DNA of 64,000 bases from Candidatus Omnitrophota bacterium (GTDB lineage Bacteria; Omnitrophota; Gorgyraeia; Zapsychrales; Zapsychraceae), in assembly GCA_015233115.1 (NCBI GenBank), contig JADFYJ010000013.1, positions 9,670-73,669 on the forward strand, in the 5' to 3' direction. Numbering within the stretch: the stretch's first letter is position 1; every line of letters starts with the position of its first letter. The notes beneath the pieces are model-generated. The model was not told the origin of the DNA and did no database searches. It worked only from the letters and a program-made list of their open reading frames with translations. A program made the translations under genes and the position numbers. This document shows positions 36,927 to 53,465 of this stretch, one piece after another.

Positions 36927-36928
36927 AT

Positions 36929-38008
36929 TTACTCGCCTATTTTCTGTTTCCGATTAATATAATTTTGAATCTGAACCGTGCGGCCATTAACCTCCGCGGT
37001 TTCGTTAATTTCCATTTTTCGCGGATAAAAACATTTTCGGCACGGATCGACGCGCATGAAACCATCTTTTTGAAAATGCATCTGCCTGGTTTCATTGAGT
37101 TTTTCGCCATGCCATATGTCATATATCGATTGAATTTTGGCATCCCCAACAGGCCATTCCACAAAATCATCACTACTACACATACTGGCCCGCCCATCCG
37201 ACGCGACCACGACACGTTGATATAATTGTGGACAATAAAAATTTTCTTCATAAACCACGTCATGATCCTTATGCAAATAATCAATCAAAGGATTAAACGC
37301 TATAAAATCAACATAAGGCGCCAAAGTATTATAAAATTCCGACGGATTAGGCCGGATGGCAGGCCAAACCCCCTGAATTTTTATAACTGGCTTCGTCAAA
37401 CCATTTTCATCCTTATATTGTTTTATTTGTTTCAAGTGCTCCAAGGTGTCAGCAAATTTTAAAGGCTTTCTCACGGCCTCATATTCTGCTCCTACACCAT
37501 CAACCGAAAGCGTCATCCAGTCTAATCCCGCTTCTGTTAACTTTTTAAAATATGCCAGATCAAGGCGAGAACCATTGGTTAAAAAACAAACCTCTTGAAT
37601 ACCTTTAGATTTAGCATAGCGAATAATATCTAACAAATCCGGGTGCAAGGTTGATTCCCCTATCCAGCTGAGCCGCAGTGAAAAAATATGACCTGAAACC
37701 TCGTCGATAATCTTTTTAGCCAAGGAAGTTTCCATAAACTTTTTATTACGTTTCTTCTGAAAATCTTCCGTGCGGGTCGGACACATGGGACACAACAAAT
37801 TACATATGCTGGATAATTCCAAATCCACCAAAAGCGGCCAGTCCCTTACCTCTCCCTTTTGCGGTAACTCATCCCATAAACGCCGATATTCGTGATAATC
37901 AACTTCCCAACCCTTGGACATTTTCACGCGAAACGATTCAATCCTTTCCGTCGTCTCCAGCTCAAAATGTCCTTTGTTTACCGGAACATTTTTTTCTTTC
38001 GTACTCAT
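36929..38008 (-). CDS. Radical SAM protein with C-terminal SPASM-like domain (second copy)
   Basis: CNLLCPMC cluster motif and C-terminal Cys-rich region (..CSSDD..C..C..). Confidence 0.7.
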   Translation of the reverse strand: MSTKEKNVPVNKGHFELETTERIESFRVKMSKGWEVDYHEYRRLWDELPQKGEVRDWPLLVDLELSSICNLLCPMCPTRTEDFQKKRNKKFMETSLAKKIIDEVSGHIFSLRLSWIGESTLHPDLLDIIRYAKSKGIQEVCFLTNGSRLDLAYFKKLTEAGLDWMTLSVDGVGAEYEAVRKPLKFADTLEHLKQIKQYKDENGLTKPVIKIQGVWPAIRPNPSEFYNTLAPYVDFIAFNPLIDYLHKDHDVVYEENFYCPQLYQRVVVASDGRASMCSSDDFVEWPVGDAKIQSIYDIWHGEKLNETRQMHFQKDGFMRVDPCRKCFYPRKMEINETAEVNGRTVQIQNYINRKQKIGE

Positions 38009-38046: not shown

Positions 38047-39060
38047 TTAGCCTATTGATTGATTAAGCTGCATCTTTTTTACAATTTCAAAATAAGGACG
38101 AAGATCTCCGCCAAAGCTCAACTTAAACCACCCCCGCTGAGGACTATTCACGCCTTCTAAATCAACTTCATGGATCCCCTGTTGACTCATGACAGAAAAA
38201 GCATCCCAAAGAACGGCAGTCCCCGTATGCTCATCGCGTAAAGCCGGATCATTGGCACCAAAAATATAATACGCTCGTTTCGGGTCTATCCCGAAATACG
38301 CCATACTCCCTGGTTCGCCATCTTGTGTATAAGAAATAAACATTTTTCCTAAATCTGCGGCATAGGTGTTTACTAACAAATCCTTCATCTCAGTTAAAAC
38401 ATCATCAGCAACTTTAATATCCTGACGATTCATGGTGCGGGCGTAGAAATCCACAAACCGAGCGGCATCGAATTCTTCGACGGTTTTTACTTTCTTTTGA
38501 ATGGCGTAGCGTATTTCTTGACGTCTGGACTTTGAGGCTTTTAAATAAATGCTGATATCTTCCAATTTTTGAGCTTGCGCAAAATCATGGATATCCACAT
38601 AACTGGTATACCGGACATTTACAGAAAATTTAGGTAATTCTGTACCAAAGTTCACCCATAAAAAAGGACGCACATCAATGATAGTGGGATGTAAAGACAA
38701 CTCAATTTTGTTATAGCGCTTCATGAGTTCATCCGCGGCATAAGTGGCGATCAAAAAACGTTCCGATAATATCTGATCGTGATTCTGCCGATGCATAGGA
38801 GCGCCAAATAAAATTCCGGTATAGATCACATAATCATGCGAACAAAACTCCTGGCCATCCGGTGTCGTCACACACAAAAGCGCGGCCCTAAGTTCGGCCC
38901 GATGATAAATATAATAAGGCTTAAAATTCCCACGCAAAGAACGCAAAAAATCAGAGTATAAAAACATTGTCCCGTTTTCTGAAGCAGCGACAAATATATC
39001 CCACTCTCGATCTAATTGAGTTTCAACCAAACGATATTCGTTAACTTGTTCTCTTTGCAT
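38047..39060 (-). CDS. FemAB-like/GNAT-fold acyl- or aminoacyl-transferase (Acetyltransf_6-like)
   Basis: Size and composition resemble FemAB-family transferases; weak motif support only. Confidence 0.4.
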   Translation of the reverse strand: MQREQVNEYRLVETQLDREWDIFVAASENGTMFLYSDFLRSLRGNFKPYYIYHRAELRAALLCVTTPDGQEFCSHDYVIYTGILFGAPMHRQNHDQILSERFLIATYAADELMKRYNKIELSLHPTIIDVRPFLWVNFGTELPKFSVNVRYTSYVDIHDFAQAQKLEDISIYLKASKSRRQEIRYAIQKKVKTVEEFDAARFVDFYARTMNRQDIKVADDVLTEMKDLLVNTYAADLGKMFISYTQDGEPGSMAYFGIDPKRAYYIFGANDPALRDEHTGTAVLWDAFSVMSQQGIHEVDLEGVNSPQRGWFKLSFGGDLRPYFEIVKKMQLNQSIG

Positions 39061-40132
39061 TTAACATCCCGATAATTTCTCCGGAAATGCGATGAATATA
39101 AGCATCATCAATCTCCTGGTTAACCCATAAATTTAAAATATTAGCGCCGATCCACTCACTCACTATCTGCGGCCCGGAAATTTTTCCGCTCATAAAAAAA
39201 CTAGCTGATGGCTGCCAACTGCTAATTTTAAAATTTTGTTTAAGCAAATGGCGGAATACCCGATTACGCTCATCTGAAATAAAAAAGTTAAACCGCCAGT
39301 CTACAGATCCCTCCGGAGGATTAAAAAACTCAACGCCCGACAGCTGGGCTCGATCAAAAATCTGCGTAAATTTCTCCCTATTGGAACGGCGGGCAGCAAT
39401 ATTCGCCTCAATGTTTTCCAATTCTGCGGTTAATTTATCCGCATAATCCAATGAAAATTTGTGCATAAAATTATTTTTAACTAAATGCATTTCATCCTCA
39501 AAACAGAGACATTCGTCCACTCGCCCTTCCAAAAAATATTGATTATAGATCTGCGTATGCCGACGGCTTAATTGATTAATTTTATCTTCAGCCTCTGAGG
39601 AAAATTTCCTAAATCCATTTTGAATAAAAACCATTTCCTCATAAAGTTTCTTATCATTAGTCAAGACCGCACCGCCATGTCCGATATCAATAATTTTTCC
39701 AGCGCCAAAACTCACGACCGAAATATCCCCAAAACTTCCCGCGGGCCGGTGATGAATAGTAGCCCCTTCTGCAAGAGCAAAATCTTCAATCAACGGGATA
39801 TTATTTTCTAAACAAACCTTGGAAATCTCTTCAATATCACAAACCGCTCCATACGCATGAACAGCTATCACCGCGTCAATGTCCCTCACGTTTCTCTTAA
39901 TCTCATCCAGCGAAATTCCCAAATTTCTTTTCGTGACATCCAAATACACCGGCAAATTATTAGAAAGCCTCACCCCAATCGGAACGTTCACACACACATT
40001 ATTCGGGATGGCAATCCGCTTACTCTTTAACCCCAATGCCGTTAAAGCTAGCATAATTCCAGCCGTAGCATTCCCGGTCAAAAGCACATATTCCCGTTGA
40101 TGTAATTTTGACAAAAGCTGTTCAGACTTCAT
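39041..40132 (-). CDS. DegT/DnrJ/EryC1-family aminotransferase (second copy)
   Basis: PLP lysine motif SFGAGKII and fold-type I blocks. Confidence 0.7.
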   Translation of the reverse strand: MKSEQLLSKLHQREYVLLTGNATAGIMLALTALGLKSKRIAIPNNVCVNVPIGVRLSNNLPVYLDVTKRNLGISLDEIKRNVRDIDAVIAVHAYGAVCDIEEISKVCLENNIPLIEDFALAEGATIHHRPAGSFGDISVVSFGAGKIIDIGHGGAVLTNDKKLYEEMVFIQNGFRKFSSEAEDKINQLSRRHTQIYNQYFLEGRVDECLCFEDEMHLVKNNFMHKFSLDYADKLTAELENIEANIAARRSNREKFTQIFDRAQLSGVEFFNPPEGSVDWRFNFFISDERNRVFRHLLKQNFKISSWQPSASFFMSGKISGPQIVSEWIGANILNLWVNQEIDDAYIHRISGEIIGMLNAKRTS

Positions 40133-41427
40133 GTTTTCTCAATCACTCCACATTTTTCTAATTTATGAATCACGGACGACACCAGCTTTTCTTCTATCCC
40201 TAAGCGATAGACCATGTCCGTGACACTCATAGAGCCGTCCATCACAAATAAAACCTTCAAAATCACATCCAATTCCGTCATTCGCATGTTACCAGGAATC
40301 TGTGCTCCGCCGCTTTCCGGATAAAGACCATGCCGGCTTAGCATCACTTCTCCGTGCGGTTCAACCCGGCGGTAAACTTCCCGATTTTCGATTTTATCAA
40401 TAACCTTTAAATAAATCTTTAACGTTTGCTCAATATTCTCCGCAGATACAAAATTTAAATCATCTTGTGAGGTATGATATTGCGGATAATCATAATATTT
40501 ATCTTTGGTCACACTCACAGTATTGATCCGAAAGCCAGGTGAAGAATACTGACGTTCATCACTCCCATGACCGTCAAAAGGGTAAATTTTATATTGTCCT
40601 GCTCCGTATTCGTCGGACAACACCTCAGCAACAATTTGGTTCAAATAATGATCAGCATCCCAACTTTGTTTATATCCCATCATTCCCGGACCGCCGGCCG
40701 TCGTGACAACAAAACCAGCCGCGATTTTTTTCATGATAGTTTCATTATGCGCCAAATACGCAACCGCGCCAATCGTTTCCGGAATCCAAATAAACCGGTA
40801 GCTGTAATTACATTTTTTTTTCGACAATTCGTCCGCTAAAAAGGCGGTTAAAACCAGACCGCTCAGATTATCATTCGCTAATGATGGATGGCAGATATAA
40901 GTTGAGATTAAAATTTCTTGCGGCTTTTTCCCCTTAATAAGCCATTCCCCATAGGTCAAACCGCCGTTTTTAAATTCAGCCTCGATACAAACCTCATACT
41001 CTTCATCCGCATCAATAAATTTTTTATAATCCGCGAAACTTAAACAAAAACCCCAATCTTTTTTGTAATAACTTGTCCGGTAAGGAATCGCTTGCGGATA
41101 ATTTTCTAAATAATGTAAGTGCTTTGCCAGTTCTACGCCTTTTATTTTTTTACATACCGGTTCACTGTAACTAACCACATGCAAATTTGTTTTCTTAAAA
41201 TCAATAATTTTTTCGCCTTGCGCGTTCTTGATCCAAGCATCCTGAATATTCCATTCTTGCGGAACTATCCAATCAAAAACTTTCTGACCCGACGGATATT
41301 CTCCGATTTTGAGCGGGATTAATTCTGATAAAATCCGCAATGTTTCCCTATTCCCTTCGCCCGTAATACTGCGGCAAATCGGAAAAAGCTGTTGCAAATA
41401 GTTTTCTATGTTTTGAACGCGATCCAT
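40129..41427 (-). CDS. Aminopeptidase-like-domain protein with C-terminal winged helix (COG4310-like), polysaccharide-locus associated
   Basis: 432 aa with an M28-like metal-ligand pattern (H..D..E..H); architecture recalled from glycan loci. Confidence 0.4.
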   Translation of the reverse strand: MDRVQNIENYLQQLFPICRSITGEGNRETLRILSELIPLKIGEYPSGQKVFDWIVPQEWNIQDAWIKNAQGEKIIDFKKTNLHVVSYSEPVCKKIKGVELAKHLHYLENYPQAIPYRTSYYKKDWGFCLSFADYKKFIDADEEYEVCIEAEFKNGGLTYGEWLIKGKKPQEILISTYICHPSLANDNLSGLVLTAFLADELSKKKCNYSYRFIWIPETIGAVAYLAHNETIMKKIAAGFVVTTAGGPGMMGYKQSWDADHYLNQIVAEVLSDEYGAGQYKIYPFDGHGSDERQYSSPGFRINTVSVTKDKYYDYPQYHTSQDDLNFVSAENIEQTLKIYLKVIDKIENREVYRRVEPHGEVMLSRHGLYPESGGAQIPGNMRMTELDVILKVLFVMDGSMSVTDMVYRLGIEEKLVSSVIHKLEKCGVIEKT

Positions 41428-42488
41428 TACTCTAACATTTCTTTCAATAATGCTGAATCCTCAGCAATCACCACTTTGGTTCTCCGGCCAATCACCTCAT
41501 CAATCTCCCGGGGAGAAATACCGCACGCCGGACGTTTCCAAGTGAGATCTTCTTTTTCGATCACTTTTCCTTGAGGAATAGTCCTCGCTGCTACTAAACT
41601 CCGCCGCGCATTTTGCCGCGCCGGCTGTTCCGTGGGCCACGATACCACTTCAAAACTCCCGACTAATTCCAAAACCCGCGCCATATTTCTGCGGAACAAT
41701 TTTAAATCATGTTTATCCATCGCGTGATAATGGTCATTTCCCGGGAGAGACTTGTCATGGGTAAAATGTTTTTCCAAAATCCTCGAGCCCAGCACCACCG
41801 CCGTTTCCATAGCCCGCATATCCCACGGCAGGGTGTGATCTGAATAACCAATGATCCTGTCCGGAAACGCCTGCTTCAAACCCAGGATCATGCCCAAATT
41901 GGCATTCCGGTTTTCGGTCGGATAATTAAGGATACAATGCAACAGCGCCAGGGGATTACCAAATGGTTCCACCCACCCCACCGCTTCTTTAACTTCCTCC
42001 AAATTCGACGCCCCAGTTGAAAGGATAATCGGTTTACCAAAGTTACACATCAATTGGATAAAAGGTTTATTAGTCAAATCAGATGATGATATTTTGTAAA
42101 CGCGCATCAAGTTATTCAAAAACGTGGCAGACTCGACATCAAACGGCGTGCTCATGAATTCGATCCCTGCTTGATCACAATACTTTTTTAGTTCTTCAAA
42201 TTCATTTTTCCAAAATTTATCGTGTTTTTTAAAAAGCTCATATTGGCTCCGCGTCGGCTCTTTCGTGGTATCCCAATAAGACGGAGAATTTTTCATGGCT
42301 AGGGTCTGGGCCTTGTAGGACTGAAATTTAACCGCGTCGGCTCCGCCCTCTTTGGCCTCATTGATTAAAAGCTTTGCCAAATCCATGGATCCTTCATGAT
42401 TCACTCCAATTTCCGCGATCACATAAGGATCAGTCACCGGTCTTTCCTGAATCCATTGTTTATTTTTGAATATTTCCAAAATATCCAT
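41427..42488 (-). CDS. NeuB-family nonulosonic acid synthase (copy 2, PseI-like by context)
   Basis: YVIAEIGVNHEGSMDLAK and a C-terminal SAF/antifreeze-like domain. Confidence 0.8.
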   Translation of the reverse strand: MDILEIFKNKQWIQERPVTDPYVIAEIGVNHEGSMDLAKLLINEAKEGGADAVKFQSYKAQTLAMKNSPSYWDTTKEPTRSQYELFKKHDKFWKNEFEELKKYCDQAGIEFMSTPFDVESATFLNNLMRVYKISSSDLTNKPFIQLMCNFGKPIILSTGASNLEEVKEAVGWVEPFGNPLALLHCILNYPTENRNANLGMILGLKQAFPDRIIGYSDHTLPWDMRAMETAVVLGSRILEKHFTHDKSLPGNDHYHAMDKHDLKLFRRNMARVLELVGSFEVVSWPTEQPARQNARRSLVAARTIPQGKVIEKEDLTWKRPACGISPREIDEVIGRRTKVVIAEDSALLKEMLE

Positions 42489-42493
42489 AGCGG

Positions 42494-43198
42494 TTATTTT
42501 CCTTTTAAGATATTTTTAATGATCTGCTCCGCGTCCATATCCGGCGAGACATTCAACTTAGCTAATTTTCCCAGATCTTCGGCCGTGTCAATATCCAATT
42601 TAAGCTCCGGGTGCCACAAAAATTTATTCAAAGGATCAAAAGTTTTAATAGAAAACTTATCCGGATTATCCCAAATGTAATTAAAAACATGTTCCCGCTG
42701 AGCCGGCATTTTAGCTTCACTGTTGATGCGTTCCAAAACGGAACGTGCGACCATCTCCGCGCCTAAACCGTCTGGAAATTTATTATTTCTGGGAATATGG
42801 TTATAAACATAATCACACGGGTTATACATATAAAAATCAATGAGATCATCAATGCATTCCCACGCTATGAACGGATTATCCGCGCAAACCCGGACAATAT
42901 GTGTCGCGTTGACTTTCTGTGCCGCTTGAGCAAACCGGTCAACCACATCATTTTCACTTCCTAAAAAGACCGTACCCCCCTGTTTTCGCACATGATCCGC
43001 TAATACCTGATTGTCGGCTGTATCAGGAATAGCAACGACCACTTGATCAATTTTTGCGGCTTGACTTACCCGGCCTATCACCCAATCGATAAGCGGAGTG
43101 CCCCGCAGCGAAAGCAACATTTTATTGGGCAGTCTGGAAGCGCCCATTCTTGCCTGAATGATGGCTATGACATTATTCGCCATATAAACACCTTTCAA
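42494..43198 (-). CDS. PseF-like CMP-NulO cytidylyltransferase
   Basis: IAIIQARMGASRLPNK signature. The start may be the internal ATG at 43183. Confidence 0.75.
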   Translation of the reverse strand: MKGVYMANNVIAIIQARMGASRLPNKMLLSLRGTPLIDWVIGRVSQAAKIDQVVVAIPDTADNQVLADHVRKQGGTVFLGSENDVVDRFAQAAQKVNATHIVRVCADNPFIAWECIDDLIDFYMYNPCDYVYNHIPRNNKFPDGLGAEMVARSVLERINSEAKMPAQREHVFNYIWDNPDKFSIKTFDPLNKFLWHPELKLDIDTAEDLGKLAKLNVSPDMDAEQIIKNILKGK

Positions 43199-44795
43199 TT
43201 TCCCGCCAAACTTTGAGTTTATTAGTTAAAAAATGAAATGGGCGCATCCGTTCCCACAACTGTTTTCTTAAATGCCCATCAGCACAGAGCGAATGCAAAG
43301 ATTTTATAATTTTCTTTTCCGTCTTCCCTTTACTATAAAGGCCTAAAGCGATATAGCCGTTATCCTGGCAGGCAAATTTATGGGTTTGTTCCCTGTCGTG
43401 ATGGGCAATGATAATCGAAGGAATATTCATATGCGCCAATTCATAAACTGTCCGGCCGTTTGAAGAAATTGCCAGATCCACCCGTTCCATCACTTTCGAC
43501 ATTACTCCGGTTTGATTAGTAAATGATATCCCGGAAAAACTGTTTTGTTCTATAAAATTTCTGAGGACGTCCACATACTCATAACCCGGGCCCGCTACCA
43601 CATGCACCCGGATTTTTTGCTTTTGGCAAAAGGCATAAACCGTATTCAAAACAGTGAAAGTTAAATTACCGGGATCAGTCCCTCCAAAAGTTATTAAAAT
43701 ATCTTGCACCTTTTTCCTAAAAATATATTTTTTAGCTCCAATGAATTCATCCCGCAAAAAATAATATGAGTGGCCCCAGCGATATTGGGCGCCCGGCTTC
43801 AATGGCTCATCAAAGAGCTCATTAAAAACGAGATGGGCACTCTCGCCTCCCGGCCCTAAATCTTCAAAATTAACAACTTTGATCCCTGCTTTTGTCAAAC
43901 TCTTAATGTATTTCGCTTCCGTATTAAGAATGTCATTGATTACGAGATCGGGCTTAAGAGCAATAATACGTTTAATGATCTGCCCTTTGGCACACACCTC
44001 GATAGGATAGTCATGCCCCGCGATCTTCTGAACCGCGTCTGTGCTATCCTTCTCACAAACAAAGATAATTTCATCTTTGGAATTCTCATGCGCCAAGGTC
44101 AAAGCCCGGTAAACATGGCCCATCCCCATAGCATTATTTCCAATCACGCGAAAAATAATCCGTTTTCGTTGTAGCAGACGTTCACAGACCCACCAATCCT
44201 GATAATTTTTTATCTCTAACCAGTTTTCTTCCAATAAATACGGAAACCACTGCATGGGTTGTTTTTGAGCAACCCGGGCCGCTTTAAAAAGCATAAAAGC
44301 CTTAATCTCAACGAAAAAATTCTGGTCATCTTTTTCAGTTTTCAATCCACCTTTATCATTAAGGACAAACTCATGCCTCGTTCCCTTAACTGAAACGACT
44401 CCATCACAATCTTGATTTTTAAAAAAATCATAAGCGCGTCTGAATTCATTTACCGGCACTAAAGGCGCGTACGGCCAAAAAACTAAAACATTTTCCTTGG
44501 ACGCGTATTCCGCAAAAAATTTAGGCAGTTTCCCAATAAAATCATGATCATCGATTTTTAAAATTTTATCATAATAAAAAGCAATTTGGTTACGTTCGCA
44601 AATCAAAGAAATTTCCTCTGAATCCGTGATGACCAATATCTGCGCTAACGGAACCAGCTCTTTCGCCTTATCCATAATCCGCTGAATCAGCATGACCCCG
44701 TCTAATTTTTTAATCAGGTCATCCGCGAAAGCCACATTTTTTTTGACCGCCGGAATAATAATCTGGCAGTCTAAAATTTTATTTTCGTAACTCAT
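43173..44795 (-). CDS. Fusion protein: N-terminal cytidylyltransferase-like domain plus C-terminal PseG-like UDP-sugar hydrolase (GT-B)
   Basis: C-terminal half has the PseG motif GNNAMGMGHVYRALTLA; the N-terminal 200 aa resemble CMP-sugar synthetase folds (IIIPAVKKN..). Confidence 0.65.
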   Translation of the reverse strand: MSYENKILDCQIIIPAVKKNVAFADDLIKKLDGVMLIQRIMDKAKELVPLAQILVITDSEEISLICERNQIAFYYDKILKIDDHDFIGKLPKFFAEYASKENVLVFWPYAPLVPVNEFRRAYDFFKNQDCDGVVSVKGTRHEFVLNDKGGLKTEKDDQNFFVEIKAFMLFKAARVAQKQPMQWFPYLLEENWLEIKNYQDWWVCERLLQRKRIIFRVIGNNAMGMGHVYRALTLAHENSKDEIIFVCEKDSTDAVQKIAGHDYPIEVCAKGQIIKRIIALKPDLVINDILNTEAKYIKSLTKAGIKVVNFEDLGPGGESAHLVFNELFDEPLKPGAQYRWGHSYYFLRDEFIGAKKYIFRKKVQDILITFGGTDPGNLTFTVLNTVYAFCQKQKIRVHVVAGPGYEYVDVLRNFIEQNSFSGISFTNQTGVMSKVMERVDLAISSNGRTVYELAHMNIPSIIIAHHDREQTHKFACQDNGYIALGLYSKGKTEKKIIKSLHSLCADGHLRKQLWERMRPFHFLTNKLKVWREIERCLYGE

Positions 44796-45957
44796 TCAGC
44801 ACGTCCTTGATCGCCTCTTGCAAATATAAAAATTCCTGATCGGTTAACCGATGCTGAAACGGAAAAGAAACCATGTTATCAAAAAATAAATCCGTATTCG
44901 GACAATTTGCCTTATCCAGCTTCAATTTTTTATAAAAATCATATCGGTATAATGGATAATACTGAACCACGCATTGAACACTTTTTTCTGTCGCCATCTT
45001 GCGAATAAAATCATCCCGCTTGCCATGAGTGATCCGTCCGGCCAGTAAATGATAATTATGCCGCACACTATCTTCTCTATGGAATTCCAGTTCAGAGTAA
45101 GATTTTAACGCGTCGATTAAAGAAATAGCCCGTCTGCGCTTTTGGGCATTGATTGGGTCCAGCCGTTGTAATAATTTTGTTCCTAACGCGCATTCCACTT
45201 CACCTAAACAATAATTGTTCGGCCAAACCGGTTCCCCATTCAATTGCGGCATATCCACATTACCCATGGCCGGAATCCAGTAATCTTGGCGTTCAAATGA
45301 AAACGCGCAATGCCCGTTATGTCGAAGTTGGGGAATAATATTGACGAACTTTTCATTATTGACTGCTAATACGCCACCTTCGCCTAAGGTGGTGATATTT
45401 TTATGAGAATGCAAAGAAAATACCGCCAAGTCAGCAAAAGTTCCGGATTGCTTTCCGTTAATACTCCCGCCAATCGACTGCGCGGCGTCTTCAATCACCA
45501 GTAAATTATGTTTTTTAGCCAAAGCCATAATTGAAGGCATATCCGCCACATAGCCGTACAAATGCACCACAATAATCGCTTTGGTTTTAGGAGACAGACA
45601 CCGTTCGATCGTTTCTGCCGTCACTACTCGGGTTTTCAGATCAATGTCTGCCCATACCGGGGTGACGCCTTTTTTCACAAAAGGATACACCGACGAAGTA
45701 AAAGTATGAGCCGGAACGACCACTTCATCTCCGGGTTTAAACTGACCTAATTGAGCGCAGATTTCTAACGCAGCCGTCGCGTTGCACATAGCAAAACATT
45801 TAGGCGAACCAATATATTCAGCAAATTTCTGTTCAAATTCTTTTAGGTATTTACCCTGCGTCAATGGATCCGCTGTTTTCATGGCTGTCACCACAGTCTG
45901 GATCTCGTCTTCGGTATAATCAATCGCGCGCCCGCTAAAAGGAATTTTGTAGGTCAT
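44779..45957 (-). CDS. DegT/DnrJ/EryC1-family aminotransferase (third copy; PseC-like or KdnA-like)
   Basis: PLP lysine motif FSLHSHKNIT. Confidence 0.7.
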   Translation of the reverse strand: MTYKIPFSGRAIDYTEDEIQTVVTAMKTADPLTQGKYLKEFEQKFAEYIGSPKCFAMCNATAALEICAQLGQFKPGDEVVVPAHTFTSSVYPFVKKGVTPVWADIDLKTRVVTAETIERCLSPKTKAIIVVHLYGYVADMPSIMALAKKHNLLVIEDAAQSIGGSINGKQSGTFADLAVFSLHSHKNITTLGEGGVLAVNNEKFVNIIPQLRHNGHCAFSFERQDYWIPAMGNVDMPQLNGEPVWPNNYCLGEVECALGTKLLQRLDPINAQKRRRAISLIDALKSYSELEFHREDSVRHNYHLLAGRITHGKRDDFIRKMATEKSVQCVVQYYPLYRYDFYKKLKLDKANCPNTDLFFDNMVSFPFQHRLTDQEFLYLQEAIKDVLNELRK

Positions 45958-45959
45958 TG

Positions 45960-47030
45960 TTACATCCTTTTAAATAGTGAAATCATTTTTTCATCAGTCA
46001 GGATTTTTCGAAAGTCTTTACCTAACGCATTGGTCAAAGGTTTCTCGTGAATGACTGAAGAATTCAACAATTGCTGATATTTTTCATTGGATAAATTCGC
46101 GCCAATCCCTTTTGGTAATTTAACTTTTTGCTTAGTCATCATGGTCTGATATTCCGCGTATTCCGCCGGATAAAACTCTTCCAAAACATTCATCGCGTAA
46201 CAATTGGCAATACCATGATGCATTTTAAGCGCAATACTTAAACCAGCAGAAACCGGATGGATTACGCCTACATTTCCAGCCGCGCAACCGCCCAGATAAG
46301 AGGCGATCATCATTTTTTCCCGGTTTTCATCACTCATCATATCGGCTGACAAAAAAATCTGCCGGCACATCTCAACCGCTTTTTCCGACAATGCGTCGAC
46401 CACCACATTCCGGTAACTTCCCCGTAACGATTCCACACAATGAAAATATGTATCCATGCCTGTATAAAAATATTGATCCCTGGACACTGTCACCGAAAGA
46501 TCCGGATCCATGATCAGCTGATCAAACATGGTAAAATCACTATTCATACCCAATTTAATTCCCCGGGCTTCATCTGTTAAAACACAAGTCCTCGACGACT
46601 CTGAACCTGTTCCCGACAATGTTGGAATACCAATTTTATAAATTCCCTGACCTTTCACTAAATCCCAACCCTGATACTGCGCGGCTTGTCCGCCATTAGT
46701 CAAAAGGTTGGATAAAGCCTTGGCCACATCCATGGTAATTCCGCCGCCAATACCCACTACGCAATACGGCAATTCACTGCCCACTTGATCTCTCAAATAA
46801 TCAATATCGGTATTTTTAGGTTCGTCTTTAGTATCAATGTAAAAAATTATATCTTTTTTGCCCGTCGGTATTAAATTGATCAAATCCCTGCCTTTAAAAA
46901 AAGCATCAATACAAAATACGACCCGACCGTTTTCAGAATGAGGAACATTCTTCAACAAATCGCCTAAAGCCCGGATAGCTCCTTTACCAAATACATAATA
47001 AGGCACATTTTTAATATTGCGAAAATTCAT
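45960..47030 (-). CDS. Iron-containing (type III) alcohol dehydrogenase family oxidoreductase
   Basis: VVGIGGGITMDVAK glycine motif and metal-binding His residues in the C-terminal half. Confidence 0.7.
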   Translation of the reverse strand: MNFRNIKNVPYYVFGKGAIRALGDLLKNVPHSENGRVVFCIDAFFKGRDLINLIPTGKKDIIFYIDTKDEPKNTDIDYLRDQVGSELPYCVVGIGGGITMDVAKALSNLLTNGGQAAQYQGWDLVKGQGIYKIGIPTLSGTGSESSRTCVLTDEARGIKLGMNSDFTMFDQLIMDPDLSVTVSRDQYFYTGMDTYFHCVESLRGSYRNVVVDALSEKAVEMCRQIFLSADMMSDENREKMMIASYLGGCAAGNVGVIHPVSAGLSIALKMHHGIANCYAMNVLEEFYPAEYAEYQTMMTKQKVKLPKGIGANLSNEKYQQLLNSSVIHEKPLTNALGKDFRKILTDEKMISLFKRM

Positions 47031-47590
47031 GATATAATCTCCTCTCCGGCGATCTCCTTGATAACATAAACAATTTTATCTGCGGGAAGGGCTTCTAAAA
47101 CAACAGCTCTGATCTCTTTACAAATCAACAAATGGCTTCCATCCCCGTGTTCAGGTAAATCCTCCACCTTAGTCAGATGATACGGCCCTTTAAAATGCTG
47201 ACGAAAAGCTAATTCTAATAAATCTGCCAGATCATTAACTCCCACTACGACGAAGTTACTCTCGCCTTGAGTGTTAATTTGTTCAACCAGTTTTTTTAAT
47301 TTTTCGCGGATGGTGCCGATAGAATTGATGGTCTTCATGGTGTAATGAATAGACTTGTTCATTTTTTCAGAAAAGCCTTTAGGGGTCAAAAGATATTGAA
47401 CCTTTTGTTTGTTCAATTGCTGAACACGAACCATTCCTTTAGTTACTAATCTCCGGACAAGTAGATTAATCATGCCCAAAGAAATCCCCATACGTTCAGC
47501 CAAAACGCGTTGATTTACGCCTTCCCCACTGCCGACGATATTCACTAATTCAAATTCACGTTCATCTAGCATAACTTGCCCTCTGTTCAT
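47027..47590 (-). CDS. Winged-helix (MarR-like) transcriptional regulator with C-terminal uncharacterised domain; first gene of the operon
   Basis: wHTH segment VNQRVLAERMGISLGMINLLVRRLVTKGMVRV; RBS GAGGG before the ATG. Confidence 0.6.
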   Translation of the reverse strand: MNRGQVMLDEREFELVNIVGSGEGVNQRVLAERMGISLGMINLLVRRLVTKGMVRVQQLNKQKVQYLLTPKGFSEKMNKSIHYTMKTINSIGTIREKLKKLVEQINTQGESNFVVVGVNDLADLLELAFRQHFKGPYHLTKVEDLPEHGDGSHLLICKEIRAVVLEALPADKIVYVIKEIAGEEIIS

Positions 47591-47598: not shown

Positions 47599-47626
47599 CA
47601 ACGACACTATTATATTAATTTAATAA
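47599..47626 (-). promoter_or_regulatory. Near-consensus sigma70 promoter: -35 TTGACA, 16-nt spacer, -10 TATAAT
   Basis: The reverse complement of 47599-47626 reads TTGACAtaagttattaaattaaTATAAT, about 30 nt upstream of the regulator start codon. Confidence 0.65.
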
Positions 47627-47660
47627 CTTATGTCAAACAAAAAAGAGACATAAAATAAAT

Positions 47661-47724
47661 AGAAATAAATAGGGACAGAAATAAATAGGGACAGAAATAA
47701 ATAGGGACAGAAATAAATAGGGAC
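47661..47724. repeat. Four perfect tandem copies of the 16-mer AGAAATAAATAGGGAC
   Basis: Direct reading; the array lies immediately upstream of the -35 element of the operon promoter. Confidence 0.9.
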
Positions 47725-47762
47725 AGACGCTATTTTTTTGATTAAAAAATAGCGTCTGTCCC
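47720..47762. terminator. Perfect 19-bp stem / 5-nt loop hairpin flanked by T-rich tracts (bidirectional intrinsic-terminator candidate downstream of the TonB-receptor gene)
   Basis: gggacagacgctatttttt tgatt aaaaaatagcgtctgtccc, followed by ctatttattttttattttatt. Confidence 0.65.
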
Positions 47763-47780
47763 TATTTATTTTTTATTTTA

Positions 47781-49769
47781 TTAAAATTTTAATTCTATAC
47801 CTGCCAACACGTTAAATCTCTCCGCCGGAAAATAATCACGAGTATTAGCAGTCTTTTTCACTTCATACGATGAGTATAATTTATCCAGCATATTGTTCAA
47901 AGACAAATATACCTCAAAGTTCTTAGTTGGCTTATAAGAAATTTTACTTCCCAAGACAAAATATGGCTTAGCTTTAGGCATGGTATTGCCTACATCATTG
48001 ATAATATATCGCTGGCCAACGTAATGACCGAGTAATGAAAAATCAATCTTATCAAAGATCTGCCCATTAAATCCCAGGGCCGCTTGACTCCGGGGAACCA
48101 TCGGGATATCTTTACCGTCAAATACCCCATTTATAAATTCCGGAATTTCATAAGTATAATTCATGAAATACTTCAATTTGCTTAACCACGAATAATTAAC
48201 AAATCTCATAAGATCAAATGTGACACCATTTTCCGCCCCAATTCTACGGGTACGGTCATAATTCTTATCCTGGAACGTATTAGGATCGAAAAATATTTCA
48301 TTTCGATTCTCAATCCAATACGGGGTGCAATCAAATTCGATCCAATCGTGATAATTATGTTTGACCCCTGCTTCAAATTGAATACCTTTCTGCTGATTTA
48401 AAGTTGTATCCAATCCACTCCAAGAACTGTACCATTCATCTGTCGCCAAAAAACGGAAAGTCTGCTGGACATTAAAATGCACATTCGATCCTGCCGCGTA
48501 TTCATACCTGGTTCCTCCCATCGACACCCAGGCATTGGCATCCCGTTTAGTATCCGCGGATCCATTACGCTGATTAAAAGTATAATTGGCCTTCTGATAA
48601 CGGGTACCGGCATTCGCGAATAAATGTTCCAATACCTCAAGTTCGCCGGAACCGTAATAGCCAATTTCATCTTTGGAGATAACTAAATTATCCGTATTAA
48701 ACCGACTGCCGACAATGATGCTTTGATTAGTATAAGTATCAATTCCGGTCACCCAATTGACCTGACGCCCAAAAACCTGGGAATCAAACATGTATTTTCC
48801 TAAAATACCATCCGTCGTCATATAACGATCCGTATTCCACGTCCCGCTGAAAAAAGAATCAAAAACCTCCCGATTCCGATGAGTGTAATCCAAAGCAATT
48901 TTGCCGCCCTTAATCTCCTCGGGCCAAGGATTAATACTCACTGTTGCCTTGTAAAACTCATCATGGGTATTAGAGTGATCTCCAATATCAGCAGAGCCTC
49001 GTCGTCCCAAAGAGACTAATTCATTTTCATCCAGTCCTCCCGGCAACTGGTAATTATCTTTATGAAGACCATATTCAAAATCCAAACCTAAATGATTTCC
49101 CAAATCATATCCCAAACGGGTATTAAAATCTCCACTCACCACGTCGCTATTGGTTCGATACCCACGGTCATCCGCATACTTCGAATGGAAATAATAAGAT
49201 AAACCTTTTTCCGATCCTGAGAGCTGTACATTTCCGCCCTTTTTGTCATAACTGCCATAATAGGATTCAACTTGGCCAGATAACTTTCCTTTGCCTTTTT
49301 TTGTAATAATATTGATCACCCCTCCGACGGCGTTATCCCCGTAAAGCACACTGCCTGCTCCGCGGATGATCTCAATCCGTTCCACGTCTTCCAACGGAAT
49401 CTGTAAAAGATCAGCACCAGAGATGTCAATGGAGTTTGTTTTACGGTCATTCACTAAAACCAACACATTGCTTTTGGCGGTATCACCAAACCCGCGCATA
49501 TCAATGGTCGTGGTCTTAACTGAACCCCGGTCATAAACATAAATCCCCTGAACCTGTTCCAAAATCTGCGGGACAGTTTTCGCCGTGGAATGCTCAATAT
49601 CAAACAGATCAATAACTGTCACATTGCTGGACAATTTATAATCACTCTGACCGATCCGTGAAGCTGTGACCACAATCGGCGCCAAATGATTTTCTTCTGC
49701 GCTAACCCATTCTGCATTCACCAATACTGCTAATAAACATACCAACACCAACAAAAATTTATTTTTCAT
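47781..49769 (-). CDS. TonB-dependent outer-membrane receptor (BtuB-like by context)
   Basis: Signal peptide MKNKFLLVLVCLLAVLVNA, a plug and beta-barrel, and a C-terminal ..ELKF. The ATG at 49769 is preceded by AGGAA; the 15-codon extension in the track overlaps the riboswitch terminator and is rejected. Confidence 0.8.
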   Translation of the reverse strand: MKNKFLLVLVCLLAVLVNAEWVSAEENHLAPIVVTASRIGQSDYKLSSNVTVIDLFDIEHSTAKTVPQILEQVQGIYVYDRGSVKTTTIDMRGFGDTAKSNVLVLVNDRKTNSIDISGADLLQIPLEDVERIEIIRGAGSVLYGDNAVGGVINIITKKGKGKLSGQVESYYGSYDKKGGNVQLSGSEKGLSYYFHSKYADDRGYRTNSDVVSGDFNTRLGYDLGNHLGLDFEYGLHKDNYQLPGGLDENELVSLGRRGSADIGDHSNTHDEFYKATVSINPWPEEIKGGKIALDYTHRNREVFDSFFSGTWNTDRYMTTDGILGKYMFDSQVFGRQVNWVTGIDTYTNQSIIVGSRFNTDNLVISKDEIGYYGSGELEVLEHLFANAGTRYQKANYTFNQRNGSADTKRDANAWVSMGGTRYEYAAGSNVHFNVQQTFRFLATDEWYSSWSGLDTTLNQQKGIQFEAGVKHNYHDWIEFDCTPYWIENRNEIFFDPNTFQDKNYDRTRRIGAENGVTFDLMRFVNYSWLSKLKYFMNYTYEIPEFINGVFDGKDIPMVPRSQAALGFNGQIFDKIDFSLLGHYVGQRYIINDVGNTMPKAKPYFVLGSKISYKPTKNFEVYLSLNNMLDKLYSSYEVKKTANTRDYFPAERFNVLAGIELKF

Positions 49770-49780
49770 GTTTTCCTTTT

Positions 49781-50015
49781 TTTTACAATAAAAAATCCTC
49801 ATCGAGATATTCAATGAGGATCAGTTAACCTTATCTATTTTTCCGGTGGATATGTCTCGCGCACTCCAAAGGATAAATACTTCGGTTGGTACTCTGACTC
49901 GTAATCGGGAGACACGAAACTTAATTTTAAAACCAAATTAAGTATCATGTCCCCCCCTACTTACAGTAGCGGGACTGTTCGTGATTTGCACACGATTCCC
50001 CAAACCGAAATAATT
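49781..50015 (-). ncRNA. Cobalamin riboswitch-like leader with terminator-type expression platform
   Basis: The minus-strand reading contains GGGGAAUCGUGUGCAAAUCACGAACAGUCCCGCUACUGUAAG, matching the conserved GGGAA..GGUG.AAAUCC..GUCCCGC.ACUGUAA B12-box region. At the 3' end is the hairpin AUCCUCAU-11nt-AUGAGGAU plus a U-tract (49781-49821) just before the RBS. Confidence 0.6.
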
Positions 50016-50838: not shown

Positions 50839-51717
50839 ATGAAAAAAATACCTGACATTTTTAAAGAAAAAGCCCAGACCCTTTCTTTTGAATTTTTTCC
50901 TCCTAAGACGGAGCAAGGTTTTACAAATCTCAAAGAAACCGTCAAAGAATTAGCAGAGCTCAAACCGGATTTTATTTCCTGCACTTACGGCGCGGGCGGA
51001 GGCAATCGAGATAAGACCTTAGATATCGCGCAAATGATTCAAGATCAACACCATATCCCTGCTCTCGCGCATTTGACCTGCGTCTTAAATACCCGAGAGC
51101 AAATCCGTCAAATTGTGGAAGATATTAAAAAACGCGGCATTTGCAACATATTAGCCTTACGCGGAGATCCGCCTCAAGATCAGCCCAATTGGGAACCTGG
51201 GCCGGAAAATTTTTATTTCGCCAAAGATCTGTGCTATTTTATCCGGGATAACTGGGATGAATATTTTGGCATCGGCGTAGCGGGATTTCCTGAAGGACAT
51301 CCGCGATGTCCTGATCTTGACCTTGATGCCAGTTATTTGAAACGAAAAATTTTGGCAGGCGCAGATTTTGTTATTACCCAGCTTTTTTTAGATAATCAGG
51401 ATTATTTCGCTTATTTAAAACGACTAAAATCTGTTCGCACCACGGCACGCGTGTTGCCAGGAATCCTGCCCATCACCAATTACGAGAGCTTAATTAAATT
51501 TTGTGCGAAAGATAAGATCCGAGTTCCTGAAAAAGTAAAAAATATTTTTGAACCGATCAAAAATAATGCGGAAGCAACGCTTAAAGCAGGCATCCAATTC
51601 GCTGTTGAACAATGCCAGGAACTCCTAAATCAAGGCGCTCCAGGCATTCACCTCTACACCCTCAATAAAGTTCATCCCGCCAAAGAAATTGTAGAGCAGT
51701 TAAAATTTACTTCTTAA
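50839..51717 (+). CDS. metF: 5,10-methylenetetrahydrofolate reductase
   Basis: SFEFFPPKT N-terminus and MetF TIM-barrel blocks; the only plus-strand gene in the window. Confidence 0.85.
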   Translation: MKKIPDIFKEKAQTLSFEFFPPKTEQGFTNLKETVKELAELKPDFISCTYGAGGGNRDKTLDIAQMIQDQHHIPALAHLTCVLNTREQIRQIVEDIKKRGICNILALRGDPPQDQPNWEPGPENFYFAKDLCYFIRDNWDEYFGIGVAGFPEGHPRCPDLDLDASYLKRKILAGADFVITQLFLDNQDYFAYLKRLKSVRTTARVLPGILPITNYESLIKFCAKDKIRVPEKVKNIFEPIKNNAEATLKAGIQFAVEQCQELLNQGAPGIHLYTLNKVHPAKEIVEQLKFTS

Positions 51718-52213
51718 AAATTTCATCCAGATTATCCGGCAATTCATGGCCGGCTTCTTTGACCACGCCATTTTCATCAATAAAAACAAAAGTGGGAATG
51801 CCGACCACCTCATAAGCATCCGCGACTTTGTTATCCTGGTCTAAAGCTGAATCCGCGTTAAGATGGACTTTGGTTAAATATTCCTTAACCATATCCCCTT
51901 TTTCTCCCAAATCGACCAAAACCAATTGGATATTATTTTTTTCTAATTCCCCTAACCGGCCTTGTAAATTTTTAAGAGCGTCCTGGCAATGCGGACACCA
52001 GGTGGTCCAAAAGAATACAACAGTTTTTTTCCCTTTGCGGAAAGATTCATTAAAATTCAGAGTCGAGCCTTTATACGTAGGAAGAGAAAAATCTTTCGCC
52101 TTCTCACCGGCCATAGTCGGCGCTTCAAAAGGAGAAAATTGGGCAGAGACAATTTTAATGCCAGCGAAAAAAAACATTAAACTAACAAACATAATAACGC
52201 GTATTTTATTCAT
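51707..52213 (-). CDS. Secreted thioredoxin-fold thiol-disulfide oxidoreductase (TlpA/ResA-like)
   Basis: Signal peptide plus WCPHC active site. Confidence 0.7.
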   Translation of the reverse strand: MNKIRVIMFVSLMFFFAGIKIVSAQFSPFEAPTMAGEKAKDFSLPTYKGSTLNFNESFRKGKKTVVFFWTTWCPHCQDALKNLQGRLGELEKNNIQLVLVDLGEKGDMVKEYLTKVHLNADSALDQDNKVADAYEVVGIPTFVFIDENGVVKEAGHELPDNLDEIFKK

Positions 52214-52399
52214 TTTAAATTTCCTTTATTATGAGTGCCTGACTTATGGAGCGATTTATCGCGAACATCAAGTCAGCCGCACGAATTTATCCCGCGAAGC
52301 TGAACAACGTGAAGCTTGCCGGTCAGGCAAGGCCGCGACCTAGCGGCCGTAGCGGGATTCAATATCTTTATTATAAAACATATTTCATAGAAAACAAGA

Positions 52400-53413
52400 T
52401 TATTGGCGATCAGCGTTTAATAAAACCCCGAAATCTTTAGGAGCAGCAGGATCAGGAACGGAAAAGACCTTTTTTAAAATCATATCCCCTACTTTTGGCA
52501 AAAAATGCGAAGTATCATAATATAACCAATCATTAGTGGTGATCGCGTTCAATCCGGAAAAATCCCAAACCTGGCCGCAAATATTCACGACGGATTTTAA
52601 CCAATAGCTATATTCTTCTTTCGTAAATGATTTAAACGCGTATTGAGAGTAAGGATTAATAATCACAATGCGGGGAATTTTTTCCTGGTCGATAAAATTC
52701 ATCAAACGTTTTAACCGTTCCAAATTAACCGCGACCCGGTCCAATTTACCTCTCACATACGGAATTTCCATTTTAAACCGTTCTTTGAAATATTTGGCAT
52801 GATCCTTAACGATCGCCTGATCACGGTCAACATAATACCAATGCCCCGTAGTTTGATCAAATTGATAAGACGCGGGTTTATGACGGAGAATAACGTCACG
52901 AAAGGCTTTACGCCAATTATTAAAATCAAAATTTAAGGCAAACGGCGGATAAAAACTAAACCAGCTCTCTCCGCTCACCAAGGGATGTTCTTTAGCCTCG
53001 ATAGCATTTTTAGGAAAATCATCCACCAAAAACATAAAATCATAATCCAGGCCTAAAATCACTTGTTTTATTTTTATGTTGCGTTTTTTTAACCAAACTA
53101 ATTCATTCAAAATCAGATCCAATTTTTCCGCAGCCGCGGAAAAACTGTAATAATGAAGACCGGATAATTGAGAAGCGAGTTTCGCGGCATAAAAATTTGT
53201 CCGGGAAGATCCCACGATAAAAGCATCATAGTCATCCGGATGGGCATTTAAAAATTTCACTTTCAAATAGCGAAAATTCGCGCTGACATTTGTATTATTA
53301 AAATGAGAAATACCAAAAATACGATATATATCCCACAGCACGTTCATGGAAATCACGAAACTGATCGCGAGCGTTACAATGGTAATAAAAATTAGATTAT
53401 ATTTTTTTTCCAT
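52400..53413 (-). CDS. DltD-like SGNH-fold membrane-anchored protein (second copy)
   Basis: N-terminal TM, IVGSSR Ser block, and later D-x-x-H (DTSHF). The ATG at 53413 is used; the GTG extension in the track lies in the palindrome. Confidence 0.5.
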   Translation of the reverse strand: MEKKYNLIFITIVTLAISFVISMNVLWDIYRIFGISHFNNTNVSANFRYLKVKFLNAHPDDYDAFIVGSSRTNFYAAKLASQLSGLHYYSFSAAAEKLDLILNELVWLKKRNIKIKQVILGLDYDFMFLVDDFPKNAIEAKEHPLVSGESWFSFYPPFALNFDFNNWRKAFRDVILRHKPASYQFDQTTGHWYYVDRDQAIVKDHAKYFKERFKMEIPYVRGKLDRVAVNLERLKRLMNFIDQEKIPRIVIINPYSQYAFKSFTKEEYSYWLKSVVNICGQVWDFSGLNAITTNDWLYYDTSHFLPKVGDMILKKVFSVPDPAAPKDFGVLLNADRQ

Positions 53414-53420
53414 AGACCAT

Positions 53421-53465
53421 GGGACCACCGCGTAGGTGGACCATTGGTCCACCTACGCGGTGGTC
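53421..53465. repeat. 45-bp perfect GC-rich palindrome (22-bp arms)
   Basis: ggaccaccgcgtaggtggacca t tggtccacctacgcggtggtcc, intergenic between the CcdA-like and DltD-like genes. Confidence 0.85.

Follow-up and report, generated by a model that had tools for sequence, protein, structure and literature searches.

The 64-kb window analysed here (the whole stretch of DNA under study, from contig JADFYJ010000013.1 of a Candidatus Omnitrophota bacterium) carries on its minus strand the gene of an Fe-ADH-family oxidase (45960..47030) followed by the gene of a DegT-family aminotransferase (44779..45957), and this pair is the tightest unit of a gene cassette that also encodes a PseG-like hydrolase, an SpsF-type cytidylyltransferase and a NeuB-family synthase. 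The oxidase is related to KdnB of Shewanella oneidensis, which together with the aminotransferase KdnA reportedly converts Kdo (3-deoxy-D-manno-oct-2-ulosonic acid) via 8-oxo-Kdo to 8-amino-8-deoxy-Kdo (Kdo8N), as Gattis and co-workers are said to have described in 2013; the chemistry of KdnB is taken here as the PDB and UniProt names indicate it (5k8c for KdnB, 5k8b for KdnA). It is proposed, tentatively and with a probability of roughly 0.45, that the pair carries out a KdnB/KdnA-style oxidation and transamination of the terminal CH2OH group of a NeuB-derived nonulosonic acid, which would give a 9-amino sugar. An earlier sequence-only reading of this DNA had already recognized the two genes and compared them with KdnB and KdnA. 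Their coordinates, strand and Pfam matches agree with that reading, and the comparison holds for the oxidase as far as its closest relative is concerned, but in the phylogenetic placement that had been suggested as a check, the oxidase falls into a sister clade of KdnB and the aminotransferase into a clade apart from both KdnA and LegC.

The oxidase, a protein of 356 amino acids (aa), matches the Pfam families Fe-ADH (4.9e-26) and ADH_Fe_C (2.1e-10), and its top sequence match in the PDB is Shewanella KdnB (5k8c), with an E-value of 1.5e-92 and 46% identity over residues 1-355. Among other Fe-ADHs, the next match has 2.8e-29, 1,3-propanediol dehydrogenases have about 1e-15, and glycerol dehydrogenase has 8.6e-5, and these scores rule out that the protein is a glycerol or 1,3-propanediol dehydrogenase, a grouping for which the sequence-only reading had advised to look. 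An AlphaFold (AF2) model of the protein with a pLDDT (predicted local distance difference test) of 89 has a template modelling (TM) score of 0.93 to 5k8c and 3rf7, and of at most 0.83 to other Fe-ADHs. No other characterised or solved protein comes as near to the window protein as KdnB does, by a wide margin and over the full length. In an NCBIfam search, no equivalog model was near its cut-off. The features of the group III fold are present, with the GGG motif (G95-G97) and the predicted metal ligands D193, H197, H258 and H272 being invariant, and the predicted reaction is the oxidation of a sugar CH2OH group to the aldehyde.

The KdnB-like proteins were compared in a census of one genome per species, complemented by contig look-ups; comparison contigs are referred to as loci with L numbers. 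The census splits these proteins into a clade A, which includes the window protein and whose members are 51-67% identical to it, and a clade B (41-47% identical), which includes proteins of Shewanella, Parashewanella, Desulfobacteraceae, Nitrospiraceae, Prevotellaceae, Flavobacteriaceae, and Chitinophagaceae. In clade B loci, the adjacent aminotransferase gene, where present, lies upstream of the oxidase gene, and some of these loci have a KdsB-like gene, whereas in clade A loci, the window included, the oxidase gene comes first and is followed by a DegT gene of a different type. In a neighbour-joining (NJ) tree on Kimura distances with 200 bootstraps, clade A is supported by 193/200, clade B with KdnB by 169/200, and the union of both by 200/200, and mean identities are 58% within clade A, 65% within clade B, 44% between the clades and 21% to outgroup Fe-ADHs. 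Judged from this tree, the window oxidase belongs to a sister clade and is not a KdnB orthologue.

The two clades have much in common. When 128 clade A sequences were compared with 72 clade B sequences, 77 positions were found to be at least 90% conserved in both, including the four predicted metal ligands, G95-97, Y119-Q120-G121-W122, R147-T148, and N163-S164-D165, and systematic differences were found at 10 positions only (clade A residue first: N153>G, T194>C, R207>L, P259>A, A262>Y, L321>M, K330>P, P331>L, L332>W, F340>W). Several of these 10 positions adjoin predicted metal ligands in the sequence, and at three of them clade A has a smaller residue (A262, L332, F340) where KdnB has a bulky aromatic one (Y, W, W, respectively). 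The lengths are nearly equal, with indels of 2-3 residues. Because of the shared positions, the few differences, the smaller residues in place of aromatic ones and the equal length, it would fit that clade A acts on a substrate that is similar to that of KdnB but somewhat larger, and that is a free sugar acid. A library of representatives at 50% identity contains about 101 clusters that match the window oxidase at E<=1e-30, and the family is therefore compact, although its members are abundant: in the contig collection, 2,223 blocks are indexed for the Bilophila protein P0121 alone.

The aminotransferase has 392 aa and matches Pfam DegT_DnrJ_EryC1 (PF01041) with 4.3e-83. All aligned DegT proteins share D157 and K186, the latter being taken by its position as the lysine that binds pyridoxal phosphate (PLP), and the enzyme is predicted to convert an aldehyde into a primary amine. 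In an NJ tree, the DegT proteins encoded beside clade A oxidases form one clade (referred to as module DegTs in the following), the KdnA-like proteins beside clade B oxidases form another, and LegC-type proteins branch apart from both. On average, the window DegT shares 60% identity with the module clade, 26% with the KdnA clade, and 30% with the LegC that is encoded in the same window. The KdnA structure 5k8b ranks only 16th among the PDB matches, with 1.8e-36 versus about 5e-43 for the best, and the better matches include 2c7t and 5w71, which are aminotransferases of the aminoglycoside type. A close relationship to KdnA is ruled out by the separate clade, the low identity and this rank; BLASTP aligns no more than 216 aa with a Shewanella KdnA, at 37% identity.

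The sequence-only reading had considered that the aminotransferase might simply be PseC. PseC is indeed the best-scoring NCBIfam model (TIGR03588), but the score of 230.9 bits is far from the cut-off of 423.5, and because a true KdnA scores 208 bits on the same model, the similarity is of the generic family kind. Together with the lack of a 4,6-dehydratase gene in the cassette, the presence of separate LegB and LegC genes downstream, and the company of an Fe-ADH in 15/16 loci, this speaks against a plain PseC. A score of 160.8 bits on TIGR04181 (cut-off 420) speaks against LegC as well, and as the operon has its own complete set of genes for legionaminic acid, the DegT of the pair is not needed for that pathway.

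Downstream of the pair follows a gene of a 540-aa fusion protein (43173..44795, minus strand as all genes of this operon), in which a degenerate cytidylyltransferase-like domain (residues about 1-205) precedes a PseG-like UDP-sugar hydrolase domain (212-465). The C-terminal half scores 143 bits on the PseG model (cut-off 153.6) and matches PDB 3hbm with 2.6e-7, and the protein retains the GMGH motif, which we take to hold the catalytic histidine of PseG. In the N-terminal domain, the IPARxxSxR motif has degenerated to IIPAVKKNVAF, with loss of the catalytic arginine and of Ser-x-Arg. Both domains are kept in seven other loci (L001-L004, L008, L010, L086), and as a mere idea, the N-terminal domain could bind a CMP-sugar for regulation, analogous to the feedback inhibition of early nonulosonic acid (NulO) enzymes by CMP-sugars. 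The next gene (42494..43198) encodes an SpsF-type cytidylyltransferase with an intact IQARMGASRLPNK motif, a predicted CMP-sugar synthetase (best PDB match 6oew, 8e-27). The sequence-only reading had taken this gene to be KdsB-like, which does not hold, as the protein reaches only 83 bits on KdsB subfamily models that have cut-offs of 193-255.

The synthase gene (41427..42488) encodes a NeuB-family enzyme with a SAF domain, and as a NeuB and a SAF domain occur in one operon with a CTP_transf_3 cytidylyltransferase, the cassette qualifies as a nonulosonic acid cassette. The synthase belongs to a distinct subfamily, as it scores 318.5 bits on NeuB_NnaB (cut-off 399.65) and 230.4 on PseI (cut-off 340.25); it fits no known specificity equivalog (NeuB/LegI, PseI), and the same is true for the orthologue of Desulfovibrio vulgaris. 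The closest solved structure is that of Neisseria meningitidis NeuB (1.8e-49), ahead of SpsE and PseI. The operon contains no KdsA, KdsC or KdsD gene, and no 4,6-dehydratase gene is found in the cassette, neither in the window nor in D. vulgaris.

The order oxidase, DegT, fusion protein, cytidylyltransferase, and NeuB recurs across several phyla. It is found in Nitratidesulfovibrio termitidis, in other Omnitrophota, in Acidiferrobacteraceae, in a betaproteobacterial metagenome-assembled genome (MAG), and in Nitratidesulfovibrio (Desulfovibrio) vulgaris Hildenborough (L086), where the oxidase is AAS94836 (DVU_0353) and the other four genes follow directly, with no 4,6-dehydratase gene within 10 kb of the cluster. 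An Arcobacter MAG has the cassette with an inserted methyltransferase gene. A LIC12162-family transferase is often found with the cassette. In Desulfovibrio relatives, its gene follows the cassette together with those of a hexapeptide acetyltransferase and a flippase, and in D. vulgaris and N. termitidis it comes after NeuB. The Fe-ADH gene stands beside that of the module DegT in 15/16 loci, of which 11/12 come from the search that started from the oxidase and 4/4 from a search on the DegT side, which covered four large contigs with a 64-66% identical DegT and found an Fe-ADH gene directly upstream in all of them. NeuB is part of the cluster in 12 of the 14 loci with enough flanking sequence, and an SpsF-type cytidylyltransferase nearly always is.

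There are several variations of this theme. Chlorobium (L008, 9968..14534) has the cassette without the DegT gene, and no aminotransferase gene was found among the neighbours within 10 kb. Alphaproteobacterial and other variants lack the PseG-like gene, and four loci keep Fe-ADH, DegT, NeuB, and cytidylyltransferase with no PseG- or NeuC-like hydrolase gene nearby. In L088 (7668..10191), the pair stands alone, with no NeuB gene within 9 kb, and in Bilophila wadsworthia (L091, 10001..15251), the oxidase and DegT genes are followed by those of a 545-aa protein and a cytidylyltransferase, with no NeuB gene within 10 kb. Exceptions as to the oxidase are L089 (7832..9016) and L090 (7861..8982), where a module DegT that is 64-66% identical to that of the window is encoded beside an Fe-ADH that is not KdnB-like. 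These oxidases are only about 22% identical to the others and match methanol dehydrogenase best in the PDB (1.9e-40, versus 2.5e-20 for KdnB). The Fe-ADHs that are encoded beside module DegTs therefore do not all belong to a single clade, and by their sequences they look like a non-orthologous displacement within the cassette.

Pair and cassette are part of a single very long, densely packed polysaccharide operon on the minus strand, which runs from about 47590 to about 1246. The first gene (47027..47590) encodes a MarR/winged-helix regulator (HTH_24, MarR; 59 bits on TIGR04176, MarR_EPS, cut-off 88) and overlaps the start of the Fe-ADH gene by 4 nt; the spacer between the Fe-ADH and DegT genes is 2 nt, and the DegT gene overlaps the next gene by 17 nt. 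A promoter-like site with perfect sigma-70 consensus (TTGACA-16-TATAAT, 47609..47636, minus strand) lies 19 nt upstream of the first gene. It is the only 12/12 match in the region and is a candidate promoter by this consensus match, and promoter-like sites in the region as a whole are not more common than in shuffled sequence. Further upstream, a terminator-like hairpin with a 20-bp stem and T tracts on both sides (47718..47764) closes the preceding unit with a TonB-receptor gene and marks the operon boundary. Because of the tight packing and the promoter site and terminator hairpin upstream, the regulator gene is gene 1 and the pair are genes 2 and 3 of the operon, so that the idea that the pair heads the operon is right in essence, except that the gene of a MarR-type regulator precedes it. 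A homologue of the regulator with 54% identity is encoded at the same position in L004/L005.

The substrate, the carbon that is attacked and the order of the steps are inferred from this gene content, the clades, the synteny, and the operon structure. The PseG-like hydrolase would free a hexosamine from its UDP-sugar, NeuB would condense the hexosamine with phosphoenolpyruvate to a nonulosonic acid, and the KdnB-family Fe-ADH, which is expected to depend on metal and NAD (nicotinamide adenine dinucleotide), would oxidize the terminal CH2OH group at C9 to the aldehyde. The DegT enzyme would then transaminate the aldehyde with PLP to CH2NH2, which would be the nine-carbon analogue of the conversion of Kdo to Kdo8N. 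The pair may also act earlier, on C6 of the hexose before the condensation, and the final 9-amino-9-deoxy nonulosonic acid would be the same. An acetyltransferase or a GNAT enzyme could N-acylate the new amine, the SpsF-type cytidylyltransferase would make the CMP-sugar, and the LIC12162-family protein might transfer the activated sugar to the polysaccharide.

Fe-ADHs mostly handle primary alcohols and aldehydes. A terminal primary alcohol is favoured as the site of oxidation because KdnB, the closest characterised enzyme, oxidizes such a group on free Kdo, because the shared conserved positions and the length argue against an added subsite for a nucleotide, and because a generic Fe-ADH can replace the KdnB-like one beside the same DegT. 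It is also favoured because some cassettes have no UDP-sugar hydrolase nearby, and because we know of no precedent for nucleotide sugars, or secondary alcohols of their rings, as substrates of an Fe-ADH. As the operon has a NeuB-type synthase and no Kdo genes, a nine-carbon acid is likelier than Kdo8N. The amino-ulosonic acid that the sequence-only reading had considered as product is plausible, although it probably is not Kdo8N.

Several points weigh against a terminal amination of a nonulosonic acid. The analogy to Kdo8N synthesis is carried by the oxidase alone, because the partner aminotransferase is not KdnA-like. The searchable literature is silent on the biochemistry or genetics of any clade A member, and no natural 9-amino nonulosonic acid is reported in the literature searched. 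The order of oxidase/aminotransferase, hydrolase, and synthase genes mirrors pseB-pseC-pseG-pseI, and the hydrolase is PseG-like and not NeuC-like, which would fit an early action of the pair on a UDP-sugar. Furthermore, NeuB is not encoded nearby in Bilophila and L088, and Chlorobium has no DegT gene in its cassette.

The gene order and the hydrolase lead to the alternative that survives best, although it is judged unlikely, namely that the Fe-ADH replaces the dehydratase PseB, LegB, or SpsM and oxidizes C4 of a UDP-N-acetylhexosamine, with the DegT serving as a 4-aminotransferase like PseC, LegC, or SpsC. N-acetylation, hydrolysis by the PseG-like enzyme, and condensation by NeuB would then lead to a 5,7-diamino-3,5,7-trideoxy-nonulosonic acid that keeps its 9-OH group. 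Pse operons have pseB-pseC at their head, and the order of the cassette genes parallels this. Most cassettes contain a PseG-like UDP-sugar hydrolase as part of a fusion, the D. vulgaris cluster has no dehydratase gene, and PseC is the model on which the DegT scores best. The cassette also resembles the sps set of Bacillus subtilis (SpsC, SpsG, SpsE, SpsF), with the Fe-ADH at the place where SpsM would act (PMC7439481). Against this alternative speaks the oxidase, whose closest characterised relative oxidizes a terminal primary alcohol of free Kdo, as the name of 5k8c has it, and which is as long as KdnB, shares the 77 conserved positions, and has no insertion of the size of a nucleotide subsite. 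The lack of any Fe-ADH precedent on nucleotide sugars and their ring alcohols counts against it in the same way, the PseC score of 231 bits is generic, as a true KdnA reaches 208 bits, and four loci have no hydrolase nearby.

A genuine synthesis of Kdo8N is distinctly less probable. Clade A would in this case oxidize C8 of Kdo, the DegT would make Kdo8N, the SpsF-type enzyme would activate it, and NeuB would belong to the synthesis of a different sugar. In favour of this, the closest homologue with a known function is KdnB, automatic pipelines already label clade A proteins as 'Kdo 8-oxidase', the cytidylyltransferase scores best on KdsB-type models, and the pair occurs without NeuB in L088 and only with the hydrolase fusion and the cytidylyltransferase in Bilophila. 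Yet the window oxidase lies in the sister clade and outside the KdnB clade, and the window pair lacks the KdnA-type partner and the true KdsB with which KdnB occurs in Shewanella, Desulfobacteraceae, and some Bacteroidota. NeuB is linked in 12/14 loci, the operon has no KdsA, KdsC, and KdsD, and the 83 bits of the cytidylyltransferase are far below the KdsB cut-offs. It is similarly improbable that the pair supplies a side chain, with a small alcohol or aldehyde as the source of an N-acyl donor or small amino compound that would end up on a sugar of the Leg or Pse type (the sequence-only reading had considered an N-acyl-donor role of the Fe-ADH beside a PseC), since, despite the generic, methanol dehydrogenase-like Fe-ADHs beside the same DegT clade in L089/L090 and an operon rich in tailoring enzymes (GNAT, ATP-grasp, carbamoyltransferase, radical SAM), the Fe-ADH is specifically KdnB-like and unlike small-alcohol dehydrogenases, DegT-family enzymes generally act on sugars or cyclitols, and the minimal D. 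vulgaris cluster holds no other NulO pathway that could be decorated.

If C9 amination of a NeuB product is indeed what the pair does, the cassette may represent a hitherto undescribed route, phylogenetically widespread, by which bacteria make a new class of nonulosonic acids with an amino or N-acyl group at C9, made by oxidation and transamination and not by 4,6-dehydration, and the Kdo8N system of Shewanella would be a sister offshoot specialised for Kdo; this broader view has to be taken with even more caution. The class would comprise, for example, 5,9-diamino-3,5,9-trideoxy-nonulosonic acids. To our knowledge, all bacterial amino-NulO pathways start with a 4,6-dehydratase, and if the proposal is true, Fe-ADH oxidation with transamination would extend the amino-NulO repertoire by another entry point and probably by another sugar. 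Immune recognition, the attachment of phages, and motility are all influenced by the nonulosonic acids that bacteria carry on their surfaces. D. vulgaris Hildenborough, a model organism amenable to genetics, has the cassette (DVU_0353 and neighbours), which is present in the four-gene version without a nearby NeuB gene in Bilophila wadsworthia, an abundant pathobiont of the human gut. The placement also corrects a routine misannotation of clade A: JGI labels of these proteins read 'Kdo 8-oxidase', and those of the DegT 'dTDP-4-amino-4,6-dideoxygalactose transaminase' or 'perosamine synthetase', all of which are generic transfers, and a proteomics paper lists DVU_0353 among the alcohol dehydrogenases of ethanol metabolism in D. 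vulgaris (PMC10920352).

Further genes of the operon follow on the minus strand. A DUF4910/DUF2172/HTH_47 aminopeptidase-like protein (40129..41427) is a frequent accessory of the cassette that also occurs in L004, L008, L009, and L010. It is followed by a second, shorter DegT-like protein (39041..40132) that matches profile positions 30-256 only, by a GNAT (Acetyltransf_6) acyltransferase (38047..39060) that is conserved in L004 and L008 and is a candidate N-acylase for the new amine, and by a radical SAM/SPASM enzyme (36929..38008), a conserved accessory. The trio of DUF4910, GNAT, and radical SAM/SPASM proteins recurs beside NeuB in L004 and L008, whereas L009 and L010 have part of it. The region 27361..38008 carries an unusual load of tailoring genes, including those of two radical SAM/SPASM proteins, one B12-binding radical SAM protein, a carbamoyltransferase, methyltransferases, an aldo-keto reductase, and an MBOAT acyltransferase. 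The LIC12162-family transferase (30373..32124; TIGR04331 of NCBIfam, 398 bits, cut-off 225) is a candidate for the transfer of the activated sugar.

The set for legionaminic acid lies in the same operon 21 kb downstream of the pair and is complete with LegB, LegC, LegI, NeuC/LegG, and a PseF-like cytidylyltransferase; LegB (504 bits, cut-off 475) is encoded beside LegC (411.5 bits, just below the cut-off of 420) at 22293..24390. The operon thus encodes at least two ulosonic-acid pathways. The Leg region also contains a PtmE-like gene and genes of GFO/IDH, WbuX, HisH, and HisF proteins, and within 7919..24390 (minus strand) furthermore those of a methyltransferase, a PHP protein, an ATP-grasp protein, two short-chain dehydrogenases/reductases (SDRs), a formyltransferase, a PIG-L deacetylase, and a CBS-nucleotidyltransferase. 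A third cytidylyltransferase gene (3965..4738) adjoins genes of an HpcH aldolase, a 2-hydroxyacid dehydrogenase, and an HAD phosphatase. Between the operon halves (24400..27296, minus strand) there are open reading frames of 616, 190, and 147 aa without Pfam match, the largest of which has no NCBIfam match either.

Upstream of the operon, a cobalamin riboswitch (RF00174; 49867..50024, minus strand, 49 bits, E 3e-9) precedes the gene of a TonB-dependent receptor (47781..49814, minus strand), and both together make up a BtuB-like unit that is closed by the hairpin at 47718..47764. This unit is flanked by genes of methylenetetrahydrofolate reductase (MTHFR, 50839..51717, plus strand) and the B12-dependent methionine synthase MetH (54169..57774, minus strand), so that 50839..57774 is a cobalamin-related neighbourhood. 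L004/L005 show the same synteny of TonB receptor, MarR, and Fe-ADH genes as the window, beside genes of B12 uptake.

In the literature searched, Kdo8N and KdnB are tied only to the lipopolysaccharide of Shewanella (PMC5125639), and no paper links an Fe-ADH with nonulosonic acid synthesis or describes DVU0349-0353 or this cassette. In a comparative paper on Leptospira interrogans, neuA genes and a 'kdnB' annotated by a pipeline stand uncommented in one gene list (PMC8510873). Possibly the cassette is present in Leptospira as well.

With the Shewanella system, the window pair shares an Fe-ADH-fold oxidase encoded beside a DegT-fold PLP aminotransferase, a linked cytidylyltransferase gene, and for the oxidase itself 46% identity over the full length, the predicted metal ligands, and many clade-specific motifs (YQGW, SRT, NSD). 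The logic is likely the same, too, leading from a terminal CH2OH via CHO to CH2NH2 on a 3-deoxy-2-ulosonic acid. The differences are that the oxidase belongs to the sister clade (193/200; 44% between the clades) and the DegT to another clade (26%), and that the genes linked to the window pair are those of a NeuB-type synthase, a PseG-like hydrolase, and a cytidylyltransferase of the SpsF type and not that of KdsB. The expected product would have nine carbons, and the hosts of the cassette include strict anaerobes. The genes of Shewanella L021 are arranged as kdnA-kdnB-kdsB, the last of them encoding a genuine KdsB (376 bits, cut-off 234), and the window genes are reversed relative to this order; true kdnA-kdnB-kdsB loci have no NeuB. 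True kdnA-kdnB(-kdsB) loci exist well outside Shewanella, as kdnA-kdnB arrangements, some with a KdsB-like gene, are seen in Desulfobacteraceae, Nitrospiraceae, Prevotellaceae, Flavobacteriaceae, and Chitinophagaceae (within L013-L085, for example L051, L060, L074, L078, L080, L020, L024, and L032), and Kdo8N therefore may not be confined to Shewanella. Many KdnB-like genes of Bacteroidota have no neighbouring aminotransferase gene at E<=1e-10.

Another possible parallel for oxidation followed by transamination, to be taken as a lead, is found in aminoglycoside biosynthesis, where dehydrogenases are paired with DegT-family enzymes, for example 2-deoxy-scyllo-inosamine dehydrogenase with L-glutamine:DOI aminotransferase (DOI, 2-deoxy-scyllo-inosose). 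In both cases, a carbohydrate hydroxyl group would first be oxidized and then be replaced by an amino group through a DegT-family enzyme, whereas the dehydrogenase family, the cyclitol substrates, and the genomic context differ.

With the Pse, Leg, and Sps pathways, of which the B. subtilis SpsM/C/D/G/E/F set is a legionaminic acid pathway (PMC7439481), the cassette shares the DegT, the PseG-like hydrolase, the NeuB-family synthase, the CMP-sugar synthetase, often an acetyltransferase, and the position in a polysaccharide locus. It differs in that it has an Fe-ADH in the place of the 4,6-dehydratase, in that no component reaches the equivalog cut-offs of PseC, LegC, PseG, PseI, NeuB, or PseF, and in that the hydrolase has an extra degenerate cytidylyltransferase domain. 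While the KdnB/KdnA logic has been known before, new here is the combination of a sister oxidase clade with an independently recruited aminotransferase in a NeuB-type cassette.

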